Shown here in pieces: positions 3,797-22,105 of a DNA stretch of 51,135 nt. The number at the start of each line of letters is the position of its first letter. Within the stretch, counting starts at the first letter, position 1. The stretch is from Candidatus Dojkabacteria bacterium (GTDB lineage Bacteria; Patescibacteriota; Dojkabacteria; SC72). The translations under genes and the position numbers were made by a program. Location of the stretch: contig JBMNHB010000001.1 in the NCBI GenBank assembly GCA_050950145.1, positions 1-51,135 on the forward strand, given 5' to 3'. The notes beneath the pieces are model-generated. The model did not search any database. It worked only from the letters and a program-made list of their open reading frames with translations, and had not been told where the DNA came from.

Positions 3797-4218
3797 TGGT
3801 GGAGACGATGGGAATTGAACCCATGTCCAAAAGTATCATCTAGCACCATATACAAACATATCTAATCTTGTTTAGTAAGATATACCTAAAAGACTAGACA
3901 AAAAGTATATCTCCTCAGTTATACTTCTCAATCAACTACCCTACTGACCTGATAGAAGATCGTACCCTAATAACGACTGTCTTAGATTCCTCATTAGGGA
4001 GAAGAATAAAAGACACTAACCAAAATCAATTAGTTAGACTGATGCAAAATTGTATGCATAGGCTGGAGCTGCAAATGCTGCTCTTAGTCCTGCGCTTACT
4101 TTATCTGCAAAAGCGACGATTTTATTTTTTACACTTATCTTGTGTGTTAAGAATAACGAACTTAACAAACGGTTTGTGATAACTAGAATCAAGCTTCTGT
4201 CGATAGCCTGACGTCCCC
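3797..4218 (-). ncRNA. ssrA: tmRNA (transfer-messenger RNA)
   Basis: The reverse strand starts GGGGACGTCAGGCTATCGAC and ends GGACATGGGTTCAATTCCCATCGTCTCCACCA. This gives a T-arm plus a 7-bp acceptor stem with G3:U70, discriminator A and an encoded CCA. An internal frame following a GTC triplet (GCT TTT GCA GAT ... TTT GCA TCA GTC TAA) gives the candidate tag AFADKVSAGLRAAFAAPAYAYNFASV. Confidence 0.9.
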
Positions 4219-4809: not shown

Positions 4810-5304
4810 CTAATAATCCTCTATCCTTTTAACAAACTCCATAACCATATCTCCACTAATCCAACTATTTAACTTCAAATATCTCTTAGCTTGTTTTACA
4901 ACCTCTTTCTTTTTTAAAACACCCTGCTTTAATAATTCCTCTAATATCCATAACAAACCATGAACATCAACACCAAAATACTGAGCCTTTTTCCTAAGAG
5001 CATTATCTGAGGTACACAAAACCATCTCTTTTTTCTCAGCCACATGTAAAACAGATATATCTACAAGTGAAAGCTCAGGATTATTAGCATGCTTTACATA
5101 CAACTCAAAAACCTCTTCAGAAGTAAATTCATAAACATTAAAATGCTTAATATATTTCTCAAATTCATCCTTCTGATCTATTATCTCATTATGTACAAAA
5201 TCAGGTATCCATAATTCAAACTTAGAATGAGCAAAAACTTCAAGAAGCCCTAACTTAATCAAATCAATCAATACACTGGTATCATTTACAACTACACCTG
5301 TCAT
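4810..5304 (-). CDS. PIN-like nuclease domain protein (COG2405/DUF3368-like), putative toxin
   Basis: The N-terminal VVNDTSVLIDLIKLGLLEVF, the central LVDISVLHVA, and CTSDNALRKKAQYFGVDVHGLLWILEELLKQG follow the PIN-like DUF3368 pattern. The ATG overlaps the upstream stop (ATGA). Confidence 0.6.
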   Translation of the reverse strand: MTGVVVNDTSVLIDLIKLGLLEVFAHSKFELWIPDFVHNEIIDQKDEFEKYIKHFNVYEFTSEEVFELYVKHANNPELSLVDISVLHVAEKKEMVLCTSDNALRKKAQYFGVDVHGLLWILEELLKQGVLKKKEVVKQAKRYLKLNSWISGDMVMEFVKRIEDY

Positions 5305-6368
5305 GGAATGAGGTTGATGAAGTTAAGAATCTCCTCTTCACTCTTACCAGACAGTGCAGCCGCTTTATTCCTAGTAATCTTCTCTTCAGAAACACCCCTT
5401 CTTAACAAAGAAAGAAACCTAGTAGGTTCTTCAACTATATGACACTTCTTACCTGGCTCTTCCTCTCTCCATCCCTTTTGAGAAATATATTTGAAAAATT
5501 TATTCTTAAGCCCTTCACTTATCAAACCCAACTCAAAAGCTCTATATACAATAGCTTGCATAGATGCTCCAAAATATATTTTAAGAGCTTCTAATTCTTC
5601 AAAAGAAAGAACTCTTCTTCTACCTCCAAATTCTCTAACAAAAACCTCTCTAGGCATTAAAAATGCTTTTGCAAATCTGTGGCATAGCTTCTCTATTTCT
5701 TTAGATGATAAATCCTCTGGAAACTGTAAAACTAAATGCCCTAACTCATGTAGAACAGTTAGCCTTTTCCTGTCTACTGGCATATTTTTATTAAAAGCAA
5801 TTACAGTAAAATCTCCAATCTTCCCACTCAAACCATCAAAAGCATCTCCTTCAATATCAACATCTACTAACTTAATTCCTTGGTCTTCTAACAATTCCAC
5901 TACACTAATTATTGGATCAACCCCTATATTCCAAACCTTTCTAATCTTTTCTACTAAAGATTCAATTTCTTCTCCTTTTTTAATATTCAAATCTTTTGAA
6001 TCTATTGGTAAAAGAAAGTTAGAAGACTCCCCCATTATCTTCTCCAATTCTAGAAGTTTCTCTACCCTATCTTTAATCACATACTCTATTTTAGTAAGTT
6101 CCTTTTTAGTAACTTTAGAATTCTTCTTACGATATTCTATTTGTGAAAAGGTAAGGTTTGAAGGCGTGAAGAAATAGTCAATCTTAACATCTAAAGCTTT
6201 TGCTAAGGCATTAAGAATACTACTACTAGGCACCATAACCCCTTTCTCATATTTAGAGATTGCATTTTTAGAAACAAGGTTATCTATTCTTGCAACAAGA
6301 TTATCCATGGAAAGCCCAGACATTTTTCTTGCTGTTTTTATCTTTTCACCAATGAAAACTTTGTTCAT
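5301..6368 (-). CDS. XRE HTH fused to ImmA/IrrE (COG2856) zinc metallopeptidase
   Basis: The N-terminal HTH (IKTARKMSGLSMDNLVARIDNLVSKNAISKYEKG) is followed by the HELGH zinc-binding motif (LTVLHELGHLVL) of ImmA/IrrE peptidases. Confidence 0.75.
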   Translation of the reverse strand: MNKVFIGEKIKTARKMSGLSMDNLVARIDNLVSKNAISKYEKGVMVPSSSILNALAKALDVKIDYFFTPSNLTFSQIEYRKKNSKVTKKELTKIEYVIKDRVEKLLELEKIMGESSNFLLPIDSKDLNIKKGEEIESLVEKIRKVWNIGVDPIISVVELLEDQGIKLVDVDIEGDAFDGLSGKIGDFTVIAFNKNMPVDRKRLTVLHELGHLVLQFPEDLSSKEIEKLCHRFAKAFLMPREVFVREFGGRRRVLSFEELEALKIYFGASMQAIVYRAFELGLISEGLKNKFFKYISQKGWREEEPGKKCHIVEEPTRFLSLLRRGVSEEKITRNKAAALSGKSEEEILNFINLIP

Positions 6369-10733: not shown

Positions 10734-11411
10734 ATGAATGTATTAATTATAGAGAATTCTGAGACTCTTTCACAGATTATGAGTAAGACATTAGATTCTT
10801 ACGGTTACAAAGTTACTCTAGATAATGAAAATTTTAGTAGTAAGGTATTTGTAATTGATAATATTTTTAGTTTTTTGATAATAAATACAAAGTTACAGGA
10901 CGGAAAGACAGAAGAGATTTTAGATTTTGTCTTAGAGAAGAGTCCTGATACTAAAATACTTGGTGTTTGTAATAGTAGAACTTGGATAGAGAAAGTTAGT
11001 TTCTTAAACAAAGGAGGTGATGATGTTCTTAGTTATCCTTTTCCTATGCAGGAACTTTTAGCTAGAATTCAATCATTAAATAGGAGACCAAAAAGTTATC
11101 TTGATAGTAATATTTCATTAGGAGATTTGACATTAGATTTAGATAGTAAAAGTATATACAAGGGAAATGAGGAAATAGAGGTAAGGAATAAAGAGTATGA
11201 TCTTTTTGAGTATTTGGTGAGAAATAAAGAGAGACCTATTTCAAGATGTGAACTATTAGATCATGTATGGGATTATCGTCAATATGTTGGTTCTAATACT
11301 ATTGATGTACATGTAAACAGATTAAGAGAAAAGTTGGAAGATAGTAATGTTATAGAAACAGTACATGGTGTTGGATATATTGTTAGAGATAAAAAACCTA
11401 AAGCATCATAG
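10734..11411 (+). CDS. OmpR/PhoB-type response regulator with degenerate (pseudo-)receiver domain
   Basis: The C-terminal winged helix (YDLFEYLVRNKERPISRCELLDHVW...IDVHVNRLREKL) is intact. The receiver has EN for the acidic pair, Asn51 at the phospho-acceptor position (FLIINTKLQDG), Cys for the conserved Thr and Tyr for the conserved Lys (LSYPF). Confidence 0.75.
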   Translation: MNVLIIENSETLSQIMSKTLDSYGYKVTLDNENFSSKVFVIDNIFSFLIINTKLQDGKTEEILDFVLEKSPDTKILGVCNSRTWIEKVSFLNKGGDDVLSYPFPMQELLARIQSLNRRPKSYLDSNISLGDLTLDLDSKSIYKGNEEIEVRNKEYDLFEYLVRNKERPISRCELLDHVWDYRQYVGSNTIDVHVNRLREKLEDSNVIETVHGVGYIVRDKKPKAS

Positions 11412-12516
11412 GCATAACTAGATGCACAAACTCTGTATCTCCTTCAATTTTAAATACTCCTGGTTTAACAGGATCAGTACATTCAAATACAATATCTTCA
11501 GAATCTATATGGTTTAAAATATCAGTAAGTAATCTTGCACTAAAAGCAATTTTAATATCACTACCTTCTACTTTTCCTTCAAAAACACTCTGATTCTTAC
11601 CTAAATCACTCTGTATAGCAGATAGGGATAATTTCCCTTCTTTGTTAATATCTAAAACCATCTTATTCCCTAAAACTGATCTTGCAATAATATTAACAAC
11701 CTTAAGAGAGTTAAGAAAATCATCTCTCTTTATCAAACATTTTGTCTCAAAACCTGTTGGAATAATCTGTTTGTACTCTGGAAACTCTCCATCAATTAAT
11801 CTTGATACCAAATCTACATCAGAAAGTCTAAATAAAACCTGATTTCTATCCTCAAGAATATATATATTTACCCACTCCTCATCGGTATCTAACTCAGAAA
11901 TAATATATGTTAATTCTGAAAAAGCTCTTACAGGAACTAAGAAATTCTTCTTACCACTACCCTTCTCTATCTTTACACTCTGTTTTGAAAGTCTTAAACC
12001 GTCTGTTGCTATAAAAGAAACAGTATCATCTTCAACCTCTACTTTGACACCTGTTAAAACAGGTTTAATATCATCACTTGCAGCTGCAAAAGCCACCCTA
12101 TTTACTGCTTGTACAATATCAACTTTCTTAACTCTGAAATCAAACTTCTCTTTCTCTACAGTTGGAATATTAGGAAAATCATCAGAAGGCATAGTATTAA
12201 AACTAGCTGTATTGTTAGATGTTGAGATATTAAAATTCTGTTTTACAATATCAATATCAACTTTTTCTTCAGGAATTGAATTAACAAACTCTGATAACTG
12301 TTTAGCTGGTGCTGTAATCTTACCATCATCTTGAATATCTGCACCTATCCATGTACTAATACTTAACTCAAGATCTGTAGTCTTCATTGTTAACTTTCCT
12401 TTATCACTCTCAAAGAGAACATTACTTAGTATTGGTAAACCTGGTTTTGTTGTAACAATTCTACTTACAATATTTAAATATTTAGAAAATGTATCTTGAT
12501 TACAAGAGAATTTCAT
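11398..12516 (-). CDS. dnaN: DNA polymerase III beta sliding clamp
   Basis: 372 aa, directly downstream of dnaA. MKFSCNQDTFSKYLNIVSRIV...PILSNVLFE and the three-domain length are typical. Confidence 0.9.
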   Translation of the reverse strand: MKFSCNQDTFSKYLNIVSRIVTTKPGLPILSNVLFESDKGKLTMKTTDLELSISTWIGADIQDDGKITAPAKQLSEFVNSIPEEKVDIDIVKQNFNISTSNNTASFNTMPSDDFPNIPTVEKEKFDFRVKKVDIVQAVNRVAFAAASDDIKPVLTGVKVEVEDDTVSFIATDGLRLSKQSVKIEKGSGKKNFLVPVRAFSELTYIISELDTDEEWVNIYILEDRNQVLFRLSDVDLVSRLIDGEFPEYKQIIPTGFETKCLIKRDDFLNSLKVVNIIARSVLGNKMVLDINKEGKLSLSAIQSDLGKNQSVFEGKVEGSDIKIAFSARLLTDILNHIDSEDIVFECTDPVKPGVFKIEGDTEFVHLVMPMML

Positions 12517-12970
12517 AGTTCTTAATATTTATATTAAATAGTGGGTAGTTTTATTGAATTTTCTATCTCTACATGATTATACCCTAAATCTTTCCACAAA
12601 TGTATCTAATATATTTCTTTTTTTATAAATTGAAGTAATAGGAATAGTAGTGAGTATGGATATGTAGATAACTTAAGAAATTTTACTTAAAAAGTTTTTA
12701 TCATCAAGATTTTTTACACTATTTATCTAGTGGATATCTCTACCTCTAACTTATCTACTAAGAAAACAGAGAACATTGTAAGAACAATAGAAGTGAATGT
12801 GGATTACTTTCTAGTATAACTTAGGATAATTCTTAATTATCTGTGGATATTACAAACACCTAAAAACTATCATTTTGAAAGAACTTCTACGAAGTTGTAA
12901 TATTTCTTGAAGGTTAAAATTTGAAATTATTCACATTCTTATCCTTAAGTTATTCGCAATGTTATCCACA
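12517..12970. other. Probable oriC (DnaA-box cluster in the dnaA-dnaN spacer)
   Basis: One perfect TTATCCACA at 12962-12970. One-mismatch boxes at 12927-12935, 12842-12850 (reverse) and 12798-12806 (reverse). Two-mismatch boxes at 12729-12737, 12655-12663 and 12590-12598. AT-rich tracts lie at about 12600-12720. Confidence 0.7.
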
Positions 12971-14841: not shown

Positions 14842-15195
14842 ATGCTGCCTAAAAAATACAGGTTATCAGCGAAAGAATTTCAGAATCTCTACAAAAATGG
14901 TTTTAAAGTCAAAGGGAAATACGGAATGTTAATTTCAAAGTTAAATTCCAAAGACACTCCCCTTTTTGGTTTTGTTGTTAGTAAAAAAATTGGAAAAGCA
15001 GTACAAAGACACAGAATGACAAGACTTTTAAGAGTAATTTCAATGGATGCTGTAAAGGAATTTGAACTAAAAGGAAGAAGTTTTCAATACATAGCTTTTG
15101 AGTTTTGTGATAGTTACAAAGATTTAAAAGAAGAATTTTTTAGTCAAGTGAAGCAAATTTTAGAAAATGAAGAAAATAGTACTTTGGTTAATTAA
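14842..15195 (+). CDS. rnpA: RNase P protein component
   Basis: Follows rpmH. Contains the [19 protein letters not shown] (RNR-like) motif. Confidence 0.85.
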
Positions 15196-15406
15196 ACAGT
15201 ATCAAAAAACATTCTCACTAGATCATGGTATTCGTGGGAAACTAAATCCTAATCTGCGATATTGTAAATTTATCCCTACTTGTTCTGAATATGGATATGA
15301 GGCAATAGATAAATATGGAGTTTTTAAGGGTAGTCTTTTAGCTTTAAAAAGGATTATGAGATGTAATCATAAAACACCTACTGGTACATACGACCCTGTT
15401 CCTTAG
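15167..15406 (+). CDS. yidD: Membrane protein insertion efficiency factor YidD
   Basis: [36 protein letters not shown] is the YidD signature. Confidence 0.85.
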
Positions 15407-15458
15407 TACTGTTTTGTGATATAGTGCGAATTACGATTTTAATTAATTAACAGAAAAA

Positions 15459-16325
15459 ATGTTTTCTTGGATCTGGACAAATGTACTTTATAATCCAATT
15501 TTTAATATCTCTATTTCCCTTTACCATATATTGGGAGACAACTTAGGACTTGCGATCATAATTGTCGCAATTATCTTCAGATTACTTCTTCTTCCTCTGG
15601 TTAAAAACCAAATGGAAATGACTAGAAAGATGGCTGCTTTAAAGCCACAATTAGATGAATTACAGAAAAAATACGGCAACAACAAAGAGAAATTAGCACA
15701 AGAGCAGATGAAATTGTATAAAAAAGCAAAATATAACCCATTAGGTTGCTTAGGTTCCTTTATTCCACAGATTTTAATAATCCTTGTTCTTTTTCAAGTA
15801 ATTAAAAACATTGCAGCAAGTAATTTAAATGGTATTTATCCATTTATTCATGAATGGATTTCAAATGGGCAAGAAATTACGATTAATACAAAATTCCTAG
15901 GACTAGAACTAACTAATATTTTTATGCAGCTAGAAAACAAGTTTAGTGTAGAAGGAATTCCTTACTTAGTAATTGCCCTTCTAACAGGTGTCGCTCAGTA
16001 CTTTACAACAAAGTTTACAAGATTAATGCAAAATCCAGAGTCTAAAAAAGAAGAAAAGAAACCGAAAAAGAAGAAAGACGAGGAAATCTCTCCAGAAGTG
16101 CTTCAGGAAAATATGAATAAATCGTTTGCATTTATGCTTCCTGCAATGACAGCATATTTTGCAATTAAAATGCCAGCATTTCTTGGAATCTATTGGATTG
16201 CACAATCTTTTGCTTTAATTATTCAATACATGGTTTTAGATTGGGATAAAACGAAAAAGGGAGCACAGAACCTGTTATCTATCTTTAAGAAAAAGAGAGA
16301 AATAGAAGAGAAAAAGAACAAGTAG
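15459..16325 (+). CDS. yidC: Membrane protein insertase YidC (short form)
   Basis: It lies in the conserved rnpA-yidD-yidC order. MTRKMAALKPQLDELQKKYGNNKEKLAQEQMKLYKKAKYNPLG is typical. Confidence 0.85.
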   Translation: MFSWIWTNVLYNPIFNISISLYHILGDNLGLAIIIVAIIFRLLLLPLVKNQMEMTRKMAALKPQLDELQKKYGNNKEKLAQEQMKLYKKAKYNPLGCLGSFIPQILIILVLFQVIKNIAASNLNGIYPFIHEWISNGQEITINTKFLGLELTNIFMQLENKFSVEGIPYLVIALLTGVAQYFTTKFTRLMQNPESKKEEKKPKKKKDEEISPEVLQENMNKSFAFMLPAMTAYFAIKMPAFLGIYWIAQSFALIIQYMVLDWDKTKKGAQNLLSIFKKKREIEEKKNK

Positions 16326-16388
16326 GAAGAAAAAAGAAAGAGTTAGGATTGTCCAATGATTTTGAAATAAATTTTAAATATTATCTTT

Positions 16389-16868
16389 ATGAAAGATAAA
16401 GAAATACTTAAATTAGTTGAAGAAGAGATAGAAAAACTATCTTCACTTCTCAATATTGAAAGCGAGAGGTTTGTTGATATAGAGGATGGAGAGGAAGATA
16501 TGAAATATATCAAAGTTAGATTTGAGGGAGAAGATTTGGGATATATGATTGGTAATAGAGGGAGACATTTAGATTCTCTACAATTCATTCTTCAAGTAAT
16601 TTTAGGTAGGAAATTGACAGAAGATGTTAATTTTAGGGTATTTGTTGATGTCGGTGGTTATAGAAAAGAGAAAGATGATAAACTAGAGCAGATAGCATTA
16701 GAGAAGGCAGATAATGCAAGAATATTAGGAGAACCTATTGAATTACCACCAATGAAACCTTCAGATAGAAGAATTATTCATCTAGCACTTATGAAATTTA
16801 AAGATATTTCAACAGAGAGTGTTGGTGAAGGAATGGATAGACACATTGTCATCACCCCTATCAAGTAA
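16389..16868 (+). CDS. jag: Jag/SpoIIIJ-associated KH + R3H RNA-binding protein
   Basis: Position after yidC. It has a KH-like GYMIGNRGRHLDSLQFIL and an R3H motif DRRIIHLAL. Confidence 0.75.
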   Translation: MKDKEILKLVEEEIEKLSSLLNIESERFVDIEDGEEDMKYIKVRFEGEDLGYMIGNRGRHLDSLQFILQVILGRKLTEDVNFRVFVDVGGYRKEKDDKLEQIALEKADNARILGEPIELPPMKPSDRRIIHLALMKFKDISTESVGEGMDRHIVITPIK

Positions 16869-19270: not shown

Positions 19271-19477
19271 CTAACAACAGACAACCAAATCTACATAGCG
19301 TGATGACAAAATAGGGTTTTTGCTTTCCTTTGCTCTTTTTATCCAATATTCCAATATTTCTTGATCCACTTGCTCTGCAATATCTTCTTTTGTTGGCTCA
19401 TATTGTTTATCTTTTTTGAGAAGATCTTTTATTTTCTGTGCAATATTATACTCACCACGAAAAGACACAGGAGTCAT
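19271..19477 (-). CDS. Small hypothetical protein (possibly a gene remnant)
   Basis: 68-aa ORF with no recognisable motif, beside the R-M module. Confidence 0.25.
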   Translation of the reverse strand: MTPVSFRGEYNIAQKIKDLLKKDKQYEPTKEDIAEQVDQEILEYWIKRAKESKNPILSSRYVDLVVCC

Positions 19478-19628
19478 TTGTTCTCGTTCTAAACTTTCAA
19501 GATATTTTTTACTTCATTATTGAGCATATTTTTGATAAAAACTACTGCAGATAATCGACTATGGATTTTCTATTTTCTTTCTATTATACTGTGAGTATAG
19601 ATTTAATAAAAGGTAAAGTCAAATATTT

Positions 19629-21161
19629 ATGCTTACAAAAAAACAGAAACAAGTTTTAGACTTTATATCCTCTTATCACAAGAAAAATGGATATGCCCCC
19701 TCTTTGGAAGAGATACGGAAAAAACTTAAAGTCGCCTCTGTTTCAACAGCTCATTTTCATGTAAAAAATTTGCAGAATTTAGGATTTCTCGGGAAGCAAG
19801 ACAACAGACCAAGATCAATTGGTATTTATGAAAATGAGAAAATGGTAAATATTCCCTTACTCGGATTAATTATAGCTGGTCAACCTATTGAAGCGATACA
19901 AAGTCAAAACAGAGAAACAATCGCCGTTCCAAGAAGTAAAATATCTCTCAATGGTGAATTTTATGCTTTAAGAGTAGTTGGCGACAGCATGATTGATGAA
20001 AACATAAATGACGGCGATTTGGTTTTAGTTAAACAACAAAATACTGCCGAGAATGGACAAAAAGTAGTTGCCCTTCTGGACAACTATGAAGCTACTTTGA
20101 AAAATTTTTATAAAGAAAAAAATTATATAAGATTGCAGTCTGCGAATAAAACAATTGAGCCAATTATTATAAAAAGGAATAGAAAGCTAACAATACAAGG
20201 TATTATTATTGATGTAATAAGAAACGAGAAAGAAATACAAGCTGAAAAACTTTTAGAAAATAATGAAATAAAAAGGAATCAAACACTCCCTTTGAATAAA
20301 ATTATTTTAGGCGACGCCGTAGAAGAATTAAAAAAATTACCAAATGAAAGTTGTGATGTTATTATTATTGATCCCCCATATAATATCGGAAAAGATTTTG
20401 GAAATAACTTGGATAAGCGTGAATTAAAAGAATATGTTGTTTGGTGTAAAGAATGGATAAATGAATCAATTCGAATTATGAAGTCTACTGGAACAATGTT
20501 TGTTTATGGGTTTAGTGAAATACTCGCTTATCTTTCAGTTGAAATTCCGATCAATAAGCGTTGGCTTATTTGGCATTATACAAATAAAAATGTTGCTTCT
20601 CTTAATTTTTGGCAAAGAAGTCACGAGGCTATAATTTGCGCTTGGAAAGATAACCCAATTTTTAATAAAGATAATGTTAGAGAGCCATATACCGAAGGAT
20701 TTTTAAATGGAGCCGCGGGAAAAGTTAGGAAGGGAACTATTGGGAGATTTAGCAGTAGCGGAAAAGAAACAATTTATAATGCTCACGCGGGTGGTGCCTT
20801 GCCTCGTGATGTAATAAAAATACCAGCTTTAGCTGGTGGTGCTGGAATGAATGAAAGGTGGTTTATTTGTAAAACTTGTAAGAATCAAGTTTTTGAACCA
20901 AGAGAATTAAAAAATCACAAAAACCATGAAATAGTTAAACATCCGACACAGAAACCTCTTAAATTATCAAAAAAATTAATATTGTCTGCTATGCCTCAAA
21001 AAGATGGTGTTGTTTTAGTGCCATTTGTTGGTACTGGCTCCGAGTGTGTGGCAGCAAAAGAATTAGGACAATCTTATGTCGGTTTTGAAATAAATCCAGA
21101 TTACATCAAGTTAGCAGAAAAATATATAGAAAAAGCTAAATACACTCCTAGATTATTTTGA
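19629..21161 (+). CDS. Fusion protein: full-length LexA (wHTH + S24 autopeptidase) joined to a beta-class N6A/N4C DNA methyltransferase
   Basis: Residues 1 to about 200 are colinear with LexA: Ala83-Gly84 in LIIAGQP, Ser120 in VGDSM, Lys158 in ATLKNF, ending DVIRN. From about residue 225 onward the sequence is IIIDPPYNIG (motif IV), then HPTQKP and FVGTGSE (motif I). Confidence 0.85.
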   Translation: MLTKKQKQVLDFISSYHKKNGYAPSLEEIRKKLKVASVSTAHFHVKNLQNLGFLGKQDNRPRSIGIYENEKMVNIPLLGLIIAGQPIEAIQSQNRETIAVPRSKISLNGEFYALRVVGDSMIDENINDGDLVLVKQQNTAENGQKVVALLDNYEATLKNFYKEKNYIRLQSANKTIEPIIIKRNRKLTIQGIIIDVIRNEKEIQAEKLLENNEIKRNQTLPLNKIILGDAVEELKKLPNESCDVIIIDPPYNIGKDFGNNLDKRELKEYVVWCKEWINESIRIMKSTGTMFVYGFSEILAYLSVEIPINKRWLIWHYTNKNVASLNFWQRSHEAIICAWKDNPIFNKDNVREPYTEGFLNGAAGKVRKGTIGRFSSSGKETIYNAHAGGALPRDVIKIPALAGGAGMNERWFICKTCKNQVFEPRELKNHKNHEIVKHPTQKPLKLSKKLILSAMPQKDGVVLVPFVGTGSECVAAKELGQSYVGFEINPDYIKLAEKYIEKAKYTPRLF

Positions 21162-21842
21162 TGAATTATCTATTTCTTTTTTCTTAGGCAGAAATGTTTC
21201 TGCTGTAAAAACAACAAAACCATTATCAAATGCCTGTGTTCGCTTGTCTTCTAAAAATCTTAGGTATGGTAATCTAAATTTGCCCTTTTTTGTTTTTGGA
21301 TTAGATAAACAAGTTGGTACTTCGTATTTTATATCTATATTTTCTCCATTATTTTTCTTTTTTCTTGGTAGTGGTACTCTGCTCATTACTCCACTAAAGC
21401 TTGTTTTCTTTACTTGATAATTTAAAATATGATTTTTGTACTTAACTCTTATATCAGCACCCAAGGAATCTAGTTCTCTTGACATACTTACTGTTCCTTT
21501 GCCAAAAACAGACTCGGCAACATAACCACCATGAATTTGGGTTATTAGACTCGCCCAAGTTCTATAAATTCTAGCTTCTATGCCTCGTGCAAAGCAATTC
21601 TGGCACATTGTTATTTTCTTTCTAAATTTTTCAAGCAGTTCCTTTTTTTCTTCCAAGTATCTTTCATAAAAATTTTCAAAAGAAATAAATTTCTTTTCTT
21701 CCCAATAAACTTTATATAAAAGATTAATTGCTTGTATCTCTTTGGGTAAATCCATTTCAACAATCTTAATACTACTATATTTCTTTCTATAGTCTTTTAG
21801 TGGTACTGTTTGTAAAAATTTGTCAAATTTTTCTAAATGCAT
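21153..21842 (-). CDS. Candidate type II restriction endonuclease partner
   Basis: 229-aa ORF converging on the methyltransferase with a 9-bp overlap. GADIRVKYKNHILNYQVKK is a possible D...QxK variant of the PD-(D/E)xK motif. No family was recognised. Confidence 0.4.
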   Translation of the reverse strand: MHLEKFDKFLQTVPLKDYRKKYSSIKIVEMDLPKEIQAINLLYKVYWEEKKFISFENFYERYLEEKKELLEKFRKKITMCQNCFARGIEARIYRTWASLITQIHGGYVAESVFGKGTVSMSRELDSLGADIRVKYKNHILNYQVKKTSFSGVMSRVPLPRKKKNNGENIDIKYEVPTCLSNPKTKKGKFRLPYLRFLEDKRTQAFDNGFVVFTAETFLPKKKEIDNSSK

Positions 21843-21933
21843 ATTTTAAACAAAATAATTTATTTTAATATATCTTTGTAAGATCTTGCAAACCTATTAT
21901 GTCAATTCTACCAAAAATGAGAGATTTGTAGCT

Positions 21934-22023
21934 TGGCGGAGAGAGTGGGATTCGAACCCACGGTATGATTTCTCATACGAACGCTCTCCAAGCGTTTCCT
22001 TTCGACCACTCAGGCATCTCTCC
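21934..22023 (-). tRNA. tRNA-Ser (anticodon GGA), CCA encoded
   Basis: The reverse strand is GGAGAGATGCCTGAGTGGTCGAAAGGAAACGCTTGGAGAGCGTT...GTGGGTTCGAATCCCACTCTCTCCGCCA. The anticodon loop is TTGGAGA and the variable arm is long. Confidence 0.9.
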
Positions 22024-22028
22024 ATACA

Positions 22029-22105
22029 TGGCGTACCTGGCCGGAATCGAACCGACAACCTACTGCTTAGAAGGCAATTGCTCTATCCGATTGAGCTACA
22101 GGTAC
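22029..22105 (-). tRNA. tRNA-Arg (anticodon TCT), CCA encoded
   Basis: The reverse strand is GTACCTGTAGCTCAATCGGATAGAGCAATTGCCTTCTAAGCAGTAGGTTGTCGGTTCGATTCCGGCCAGGTACGCCA. It folds as a cloverleaf with anticodon loop CTTCTAA. Confidence 0.9.

Follow-up and report, generated by a model that had tools for sequence, protein, structure and literature searches.

The stretch of DNA analysed here (the window) comprises the 51,135 nucleotides of contig JBMNHB010000001.1 (assembly GCA_050950145.1), from a Candidatus Dojkabacteria bacterium. It carries a predicted type II restriction-modification (R-M) module of two genes, in which a 510-amino-acid (aa) open reading frame (ORF), a complete, apparently self-cleaving LexA repressor fused to a DNA methyltransferase, converges on a 229-aa restriction endonuclease gene (R) with an overlap of 9 bp (21153-21161). 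The fusion, the convergent layout and the candidate status of the restriction enzyme had been proposed by a model that saw only the letters and their translated ORFs (the original prediction). The features of the locus are collected in Table 1.

A LexA-methyltransferase fusion and its partner endonuclease

Pfam profiles recognise three domains in the 510-aa ORF, LexA_DNA_bind (1.9e-14), Peptidase_S24 (1.4e-29) and N6_N4_Mtase (5.3e-34), over the residues given in Table 1. The N-terminal part scores 176.9 bits against the NCBIfam lexA equivalog model TIGR00498 (cut-off 110.95) across residues 2-199, and the structures of Thermotoga and E. coli LexA align colinearly with residues 2-198. These results bear out the presence of a whole LexA in one frame with a methyltransferase, as well as the proposed colinearity with the E. 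coli protein. The predicted Ala-Gly cleavage site (A83-G84) and Ser-Lys dyad (S120, K158) fall where they had been placed from the translation. None of the four varies among 55 distinct full-length homologues, in which the LexA part is only 53-91% identical, and they are among just 18 invariant columns across 46 representatives distinct at 50% identity; the latter are the long proteins among the matches to the LexA part, clustered at 50% identity, from a database of 1.84 billion representatives. Because A83, G84, S120 and K158 do not vary across such divergent fusions, the pattern argues that cleavage itself appears to be under selection, beyond DNA binding or dimerisation.

The C-terminal half aligns with structures of beta-class methyltransferases, its best relatives being MboIIA, RsrI and CcrM. 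The order of motifs (IV, target-recognition region, I), with DPPY (residues 248-251) ahead of FVGTGSE (466-472), is that of the beta class. Catalytic motif IV (D248-Y251) and S-adenosylmethionine motif I (F466-G470) are invariant, and so, in 30 homologues, is the zinc knuckle C414-x2-C417-x12-H430-x2-H433, which had been noticed together with the motif order in the original reading. The linker between the two halves (residues ~200-225) has a mean column conservation of 0.62, the lowest of all segments, and no internal start codon occurs close to the LexA/methylase junction. AlphaFold2, run on the full fusion with a 30-sequence alignment, gave a mean predicted local distance difference test (pLDDT) score of 55 and a predicted template modelling (pTM) score of 0.45, too poor to define the domain arrangement. 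The fusion is a complete, apparently self-cleaving LexA placed on a beta-class DNA amino-methyltransferase.

The convergent 229-aa ORF matches RE_TaqI (PF09573) at 5.1e-32, with 111.5 bits against a cut-off of 26.1, so that the candidate restriction enzyme can be assigned to the TaqI family of endonucleases, and PADLOC calls the pair as MTase_II and REase_II. None of the residues conserved at 90% or more in 45 other distinct homologues has been lost from the R protein; a PDB sequence search with it returned nothing relevant. The tetranucleotide TCGA occurs 17 times in the window against 53 expected (observed/expected 0.32), making it the second most depleted 4-bp palindrome, and the module is probably TCGA-specific on the strength of these sequence features. 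The methylase and R reading frames and the operator described below are all intact in the window copy.

Table 1 Features of the R-M module and its surroundings (positions in the window)
Feature	Position	Strand	Basis or remark
lexA-methylase fusion gene, 510 aa	19629-21161	+	ORF list, Pfam, TIGR00498, structure alignment, homologue search
LexA winged helix-turn-helix (wHTH) DNA-binding domain, residues 2-62; recognition helix S39-T-A-H-F-H44	19632-19814	+	PF01726
S24 autoprotease and dimerisation domain, residues 76-194	19854-20210	+	PF00717
Predicted cleavage site Ala83-Gly84	19875-19880	+
Ser120	19986-19988	+
Lys158	20100-20102	+
Linker from LexA part to methyltransferase part, residues ~200-225	20226-20303	+	poorly conserved
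Beta-class N6/N4 DNA methyltransferase, residues 243-498	20355-21122	+	PF01555; PADLOC MTase_II
DPPY	20370-20381	+	within methyltransferase
C2H2 knuckle, C414-H433	20868-20927	+	within methyltransferase
FVGTGSE	21024-21044	+	within methyltransferase
TaqI-family type II restriction endonuclease gene, 229 aa	21153-21842	-	PF09573; PADLOC REase_II
Methylase promoter P_M, 17-nt spacer	19562-19590	+	sequence reading
P_M -35, TGGATT	19562-19567	+
P_M -10, TATACT	19585-19590	+
Predicted operator, direct repeats TTTCTAT with 11-bp period	19567-19584 (repeats 19567-19573 and 19578-19584)	+	fills P_M spacer
Degenerate DnaA-box-like 9-mer TGCAGATAA	19546-19554	+	~8 nt upstream of P_M -35; 2 mismatches to family consensus
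Opposing promoter, TTGACT (19622-19617), 17 nt, TATACT (19599-19594)	19594-19622	-	promoter scan, 10/12
Decayed remnant (68-aa ORF) of divergent 603-aa candidate defence gene, DUF4209/PADLOC PDC-S39	19271-19540	-	left boundary
C (controller, HTH_3) gene remnant, last ~65 nt only	21843-21907	-	alignment with L004-L007 and L034 (intact 73-aa C gene)
tRNA-Ser(GGA)	21934-22023	-	ARAGORN; right boundary of module
tRNA-Arg(TCT)	22029-22105	-	ARAGORN; right boundary of module
dnaN	11398-12516	-
dnaA	12971-14407	-
rnpA, yidC, jag	14842-16868		follow dnaA

Promoter, operator and recognition helix

For comparison, a scan of one genome per species yielded 77 genomic loci, which are referred to by L-numbers. 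Aligned across loci, P_M has the architecture TTGAyT-17-TATAcT, and in the window the predicted operator, a pair of direct repeats, occupies its spacer. The 51-kb window has no other perfect match to this operator. In related loci totalling 0.8 Mb, nearly all perfect matches are found 27-65 nt ahead of a LexA-methylase start codon. No operator was found upstream of R within the window, and neither the window nor the 0.8 Mb of related loci gave any sign of a wider regulon.

The repeat sequence covaries with the predicted LexA recognition helix, and the partition is clean. Helices of the form ..AH[F/H/Y].. accompany the repeat core TTCTA (48 loci), ..[V/I/T]H[E/Q].. accompanies CGG (13 loci), PTIH[Q/E]H accompanies TTAGG (2 loci) and GTAHKH accompanies TTCAC (1 locus); the two systems that stand in tandem at L017 differ in both helix and repeat. 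Direct-repeat operators are also kept by L066 and L067, variants with the wHTH only. Because the repeats covary with the recognition helix and sit essentially only at the promoters of these genes, we conclude that the LexA part would act as a local autorepressor of the fusion gene and not as a global SOS regulator. Autorepression of the fusion gene through a private operator is supported by these comparisons.

A scan of a genome collection for the exact 18-mer operator is not usable as a regulon test: among the matches listed, 10 of 119 loci adjoin LexA fusions, most come from unrelated taxa with no LexA homologue nearby, and all Patescibacteria-labelled loci adjoin fusions. Two further candidate elements were rejected. 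An inverted ATAGA beyond the -10, considered as a third operator half-site, lacks conservation from locus to locus, and a TCGA in the promoter (19555-19558), considered as a methylation switch, is not conserved in relatives.

Further upstream, the family shares a DnaA box. Its consensus, TGTGGATAA, is the reverse complement of TTATCCACA. Of 64 distinct upstream regions taken from homologues, 52 contain it without mismatch, the background rate being 0.016 per 150 nt; it has a modal position of -83 relative to the ATG, ~12 nt ahead of the -35. The box is constant across loci while the LexA operator varies, which implies a host factor, most simply DnaA. This conservation suggests a second, replication-linked input from DnaA into expression of the methylase. 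Elsewhere in the window, the dnaA-dnaN intergenic region (12517-12970) holds five DnaA-box-like 9-mers, at 12663, 12798, 12842, 12927 and 12962, and is probably the chromosomal origin.

A promoter on the opposite strand faces P_M. Among 64 loci, 40 have it with a score of 10 of 12 or better and five with 12 of 12, while only 16 of 335 shuffles reach 10, and it is often the stronger of the two promoters. Its -35 is fixed 4-6 nt before the ATG of the fusion, and the two -10 elements together make up a palindrome, so that RNA polymerase should be unable to occupy both promoters at once. Its direction is leftwards, through the operator, and the divergent genes ahead of it differ from locus to locus. 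In L001/L003 (5551-5907, minus strand), L075 (5593-5889, minus strand) and L034, the fusion is preceded by a small divergent gene for a GIY-YIG nuclease (98-118 aa), placed so that the opposing promoter could drive it across the LexA operator.

Distribution, variants and erosion of the window copy

The fusion belongs to a large family and is not a one-off. More than 120 protein clusters (90% identity) of 505-511 aa cover 100% of the query at 71-92% identity and have the same three domains. Full-length homologues come from many Patescibacteria lineages and from NCBI, JGI, ENA and Logan assemblies, and the identical fusion protein is found on three independent contigs. Across loci, the methylase part (76-92%) is better conserved than the LexA part (53-91%). 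Of the 77 loci, ~55 share the convergent RE_TaqI gene and its overlap with the fusion, although their flanks differ from one locus to the next. Because the same convergent gene pair recurs in differing flanks, the LexA-methylase and R pair is, as far as these genomic contexts tell, a mobile module. Single metagenome-assembled genomes (MAGs) have two or three copies of the fusion, some of different specificity. As to a phage or plasmid origin, searches of 50,697 phage records and 72,556 plasmid records gave no match covering at least 80% of the fusion.

When the LexA part alone was used as the query, the closest ~70 matches were mostly proteins of 380-890 aa, and stand-alone LexAs of ~200 aa entered only at 49% identity or below. 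All 46 long representatives have both LexA_DNA_bind and Peptidase_S24. Their fused partners are N6_N4_Mtase (32), gamma-class Eco57I/N6_Mtase (7), Dam-like D12 (6) and C5 cytosine methylases (2), and the restriction endonucleases found beside LexA-methylase fusions in the loci compared are of the TaqI, MvaI/BcnI, R.Pab1 and HNH types. Judged by this range of partners, the LexA module is portable, a cassette that joins to DNA methylases of several classes.

Two loci carry unusual arrangements. In L017 (2916-8214), two LexA-methylase R-M systems lie in tandem, each with a C gene: the first has an MvaI/BcnI endonuclease, the helix STAHHH and TTTCTAT repeats, and the second an RE_TaqI endonuclease, the helix STVHEH and TTTCGGT repeats. 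An additional TTTCTAT-type site is found at 5687. In L009 (6001-9390), LexA, a beta-class methylase and an M.TaqI-like gamma-class methylase (N6_Mtase and TaqI_C) form a single 1129-aa ORF, which is not followed by an RE_TaqI gene.

At least 27 loci, including the closest relatives, have a gene for a 73-81-aa HTH_3 protein directly upstream of R and in the same orientation. The product gives weak matches to the PADLOC Control_protein models and to the PADLOC capH model. In the window only the tail of this C gene is left, the rest of the gene and its promoter having been deleted up to tRNA-Ser. By alignment and promoter scan, a 5-nt deletion leaves a weak promoter-like sequence, TTGCAA-18-TAAAAT, before R; transcription of R from this site and tRNA read-through are both possibilities. 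The original prediction had put LexA in the place of a C protein. This does not hold for the family, in which most relatives have both the LexA-methylase and a C gene upstream of R; the window has lost its C gene by deletion.

The adjacent tRNA genes, correctly recognised in that reading, close the module on the right. On the left, the decayed defence gene was identified by tblastn and blastn against L004, L005 and L007, by comparison of ORFs, and by Pfam and PADLOC analysis of the intact copy in L004. Two other genes of the window are recorded here. At 5301-6368 (minus strand), a 355-aa protein combines an XRE-type HTH_3 domain with Peptidase_M78 (ImmA/IrrE-type), another protease-coupled repressor architecture, and at 3797-4218 (minus strand) there is a tmRNA gene with a long predicted tag peptide, VKNKIVAFADKVSAGLRAAFAAPAYAYNFASV.

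A possible damage-responsive switch and its relation to known systems

With moderate confidence, we favour a reading in which the window holds a type II R-M module, probably TCGA-specific, whose LexA-methylase is autorepressed through direct repeats and derepressed by RecA-stimulated cleavage, which would constitute restriction alleviation in a type II system. The LexA part would bind the two direct repeats in the P_M spacer and repress its own gene in the manner of SsoII, Ecl18kI and EcoRII. Because the repressor appears to be a cleavage-competent LexA, RecA on single-stranded DNA would be expected to stimulate self-cleavage at Ala83-Gly84, detaching the winged helix from the S24-methylase body. 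P_M would then be derepressed, and more methylase would be made while the chromosome is broken or undergoing repair with unmethylated DNA. Expression of R may fall as well, through stronger convergent transcription that runs into its overlapping gene. The net effect would be the protection of unmethylated DNA that arises from repair or from lapses in methylation. The design is widespread and probably ties self-protection against restriction to DNA damage. The original prediction had already proposed SOS coupling of the methylase to RecA on single-stranded DNA; the invariant cleavage residues and the covarying operator strengthen that proposal, which we infer from sequence. RecA itself is reported from almost all genomes of the candidate phyla radiation (preprint, bioRxiv 10.1101/2024.06.21.600076).

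Invariance of the cleavage residues bears directly on a first alternative, in which the LexA part serves only for DNA binding and dimerisation, as in SsoII-like autoregulation, undergoes no cleavage in vivo and leaves the system unconnected with DNA damage. Repressors fused to methylases and working without proteolysis are well known (PMC12707154), and L066 and L067 retain direct-repeat operators without an S24 domain. However, dimerisation alone needs neither a cleavage site nor a catalytic dyad, and the Ala-Gly pair, the Ser and the Lys are invariant in the 46 clusters and 55 close homologues while their surroundings drift; we regard a non-cleaving repressor as unlikely. A different outcome of cleavage would make the module a suicide or addiction trigger: after damage, the methylase fragment would be degraded, methylation would lapse and R would kill the cell. 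The fragments of E. coli LexA are degraded after cleavage, R is stable in many post-segregational killing systems, and the modules described here sit among candidate defence genes such as PDC-S39. Yet derepression would at once resupply the full-length protein, no degron was identified, and existing methylation marks persist on DNA. In addition, R in the family is under the control of its own C protein, which is typical of ordinary R-M systems, and killing of this kind seems improbable to us.

The operator data weigh against the idea of a housekeeping LexA with a global SOS regulon, its fused methylase being a solitary epigenetic enzyme. NCBI names the homologues 'transcriptional repressor LexA', the lexA equivalog cut-off is passed, and the window has no other lexA. 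Nevertheless, the window contains the operator only once and the 0.8 Mb of loci contain it almost only at the fusions' own promoters, single MAGs can have two or three copies, some of different specificity, and R and C genes accompany the module into differing contexts. The stand-alone LexAs of ~200 aa form a separate, more distant set (at most 49% identity), and a housekeeping role is very improbable. An assembly or frameshift artefact joining separate lexA and methylase genes has a negligible chance of being the explanation. Direct support for it was not found, frameshifted copies being confined to a few loci (L061, L062 and L074), whereas the identical protein occurs on three independent contigs, full-length homologues exceed 120 across four sequence collections, the linker is present throughout and no start codon lies near the junction. 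The concern about a frameshift or chimera, raised when the fusion was first noticed, can thus be set aside.

Several observations count against a damage-inducible switch. The helix-operator classes probably reflect only about 5-6 independent evolutionary changes, and a LexA dimer, being two-fold symmetric, normally reads inverted and not direct repeats. There are loci in which this methylase and R pair has no N-terminal extension (L068, L069 and L071) or has the LexA wHTH but no S24 (L066 and L067), which makes the S24 part dispensable for a working system. The 51-kb window has no recA, no second lexA and no intact C gene, and with its C gene deleted and its DnaA box degenerate the window copy may be partly vestigial. 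Should the S24-methylase fragment be degraded after cleavage, the outcome would be the opposite of that proposed, and more methylase during phage-induced DNA damage would weaken defence.

To our knowledge, type II R-M systems are controlled by C proteins, short helix-turn-helix (HTH) domains fused to the methylase, antisense RNA or promoter methylation, none of which senses DNA damage; restriction alleviation is likewise known to us only for type I systems, and we know of no type II equivalent. Patescibacteria are for the most part without CRISPR and depend on R-M. Full-text literature searches found no publication describing LexA-methylase fusions, in keeping with the claim of novelty in the original prediction, and a 2025 review of R-M biology does not mention LexA. 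More tentatively, and with somewhat less than even confidence, we suggest an undescribed class of R-M control in Patescibacteria: a portable, self-cleaving LexA cassette with an evolvable direct-repeat operator, found on every major class of DNA methyltransferase, with further inputs from a DnaA box and an opposing consensus promoter. The damage-inducible methylase would be the first case of type II restriction alleviation, and each such R-M module would possess a miniature private SOS circuit.

If this is true, DNA damage that is self-inflicted or associated with repair would lead directly, in type II systems, to stronger protection. The fusions present LexA as a mobile switch that is private to one promoter and whose direct-repeat operators diversify rapidly. 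The fusion series offers natural material for the study of LexA specificity and cleavage, and its helix-operator pairs are possible orthogonal DNA-damage-responsive parts. As the fusion is common in Patescibacteria, it bears on the balance between defence and autoimmunity in epibionts with reduced genomes.

The arrangement shares features with several known systems. Like M.SsoII, M.Ecl18kI, M.EcoRII and M.MspI, the methylase carries an N-terminal DNA-binding domain and has an operator in its own promoter, binding to which is predicted here. Methylase-fused repressors of this kind autorepress, and their circuits include promoters that overlap and compete (PMC2760811, PMC12707154). The SsoII-type proteins differ in having a short HTH of ~70 aa on C5 methylases and no protease, whereas here a whole LexA with its S24 domain precedes a beta-class amino-methylase. 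Their R gene is divergent and controlled by promoter competition, while here R is convergent and the operator is a direct repeat. Competing promoters are also found in Ecl18kI (PMC2760811), but the opposing promoter here faces non-conserved genes.

With LexA of E. coli and Thermotoga and with the TIGR00498 family, the N-terminal part has in common a wHTH and S24 domain, an Ala-Gly site, a Ser-Lys dyad, a colinear alignment and a score above the equivalog cut-off. In contrast to LexA, it is fused to a 285-aa DNA methyltransferase, its direct-repeat operator lies essentially only at its own promoter, and several specificities can occur in one genome; the multi-gene SOS regulon that LexA governs through a shared box was not found in the 51-kb window or in 0.8 Mb of loci. 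The relatives resemble the C-protein systems PvuII and Esp1396I in having a 73-81-aa HTH_3 controller gene upstream of R. They differ from these in that the methylase of the family has an extra, LexA-based layer of control, and in the window the C gene is deleted. The Thermus aquaticus TaqI system has an endonuclease of the same Pfam family, RE_TaqI, and TCGA is depleted in the window; M.TaqI, however, is a gamma-class enzyme and the methylase here is beta-class, with only L009 adding an M.TaqI-like gamma module.

In CapH/CapP-type systems, which consist of two proteins and control cyclic-oligonucleotide-based antiphage signalling systems (CBASS) and similar defences, an HTH repressor is cleaved by a metalloprotease activated by DNA damage. 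The sequence of events proposed here, from a damage signal through proteolysis of an HTH repressor to expression of a defence component, is similar, but the S24 protease would act intramolecularly and the regulated product would be the repressor-methylase itself. The proposed logic is also that of type I restriction alleviation, in which damage or repair yields unmodified self DNA and the system comes to favour modification over restriction (PMC12707154, PMC11109961). There, alleviation works by ClpXP proteolysis of HsdR and involves no dedicated repressor, whereas in the module described here the shift would come from self-cleavage of a methylase-fused repressor.

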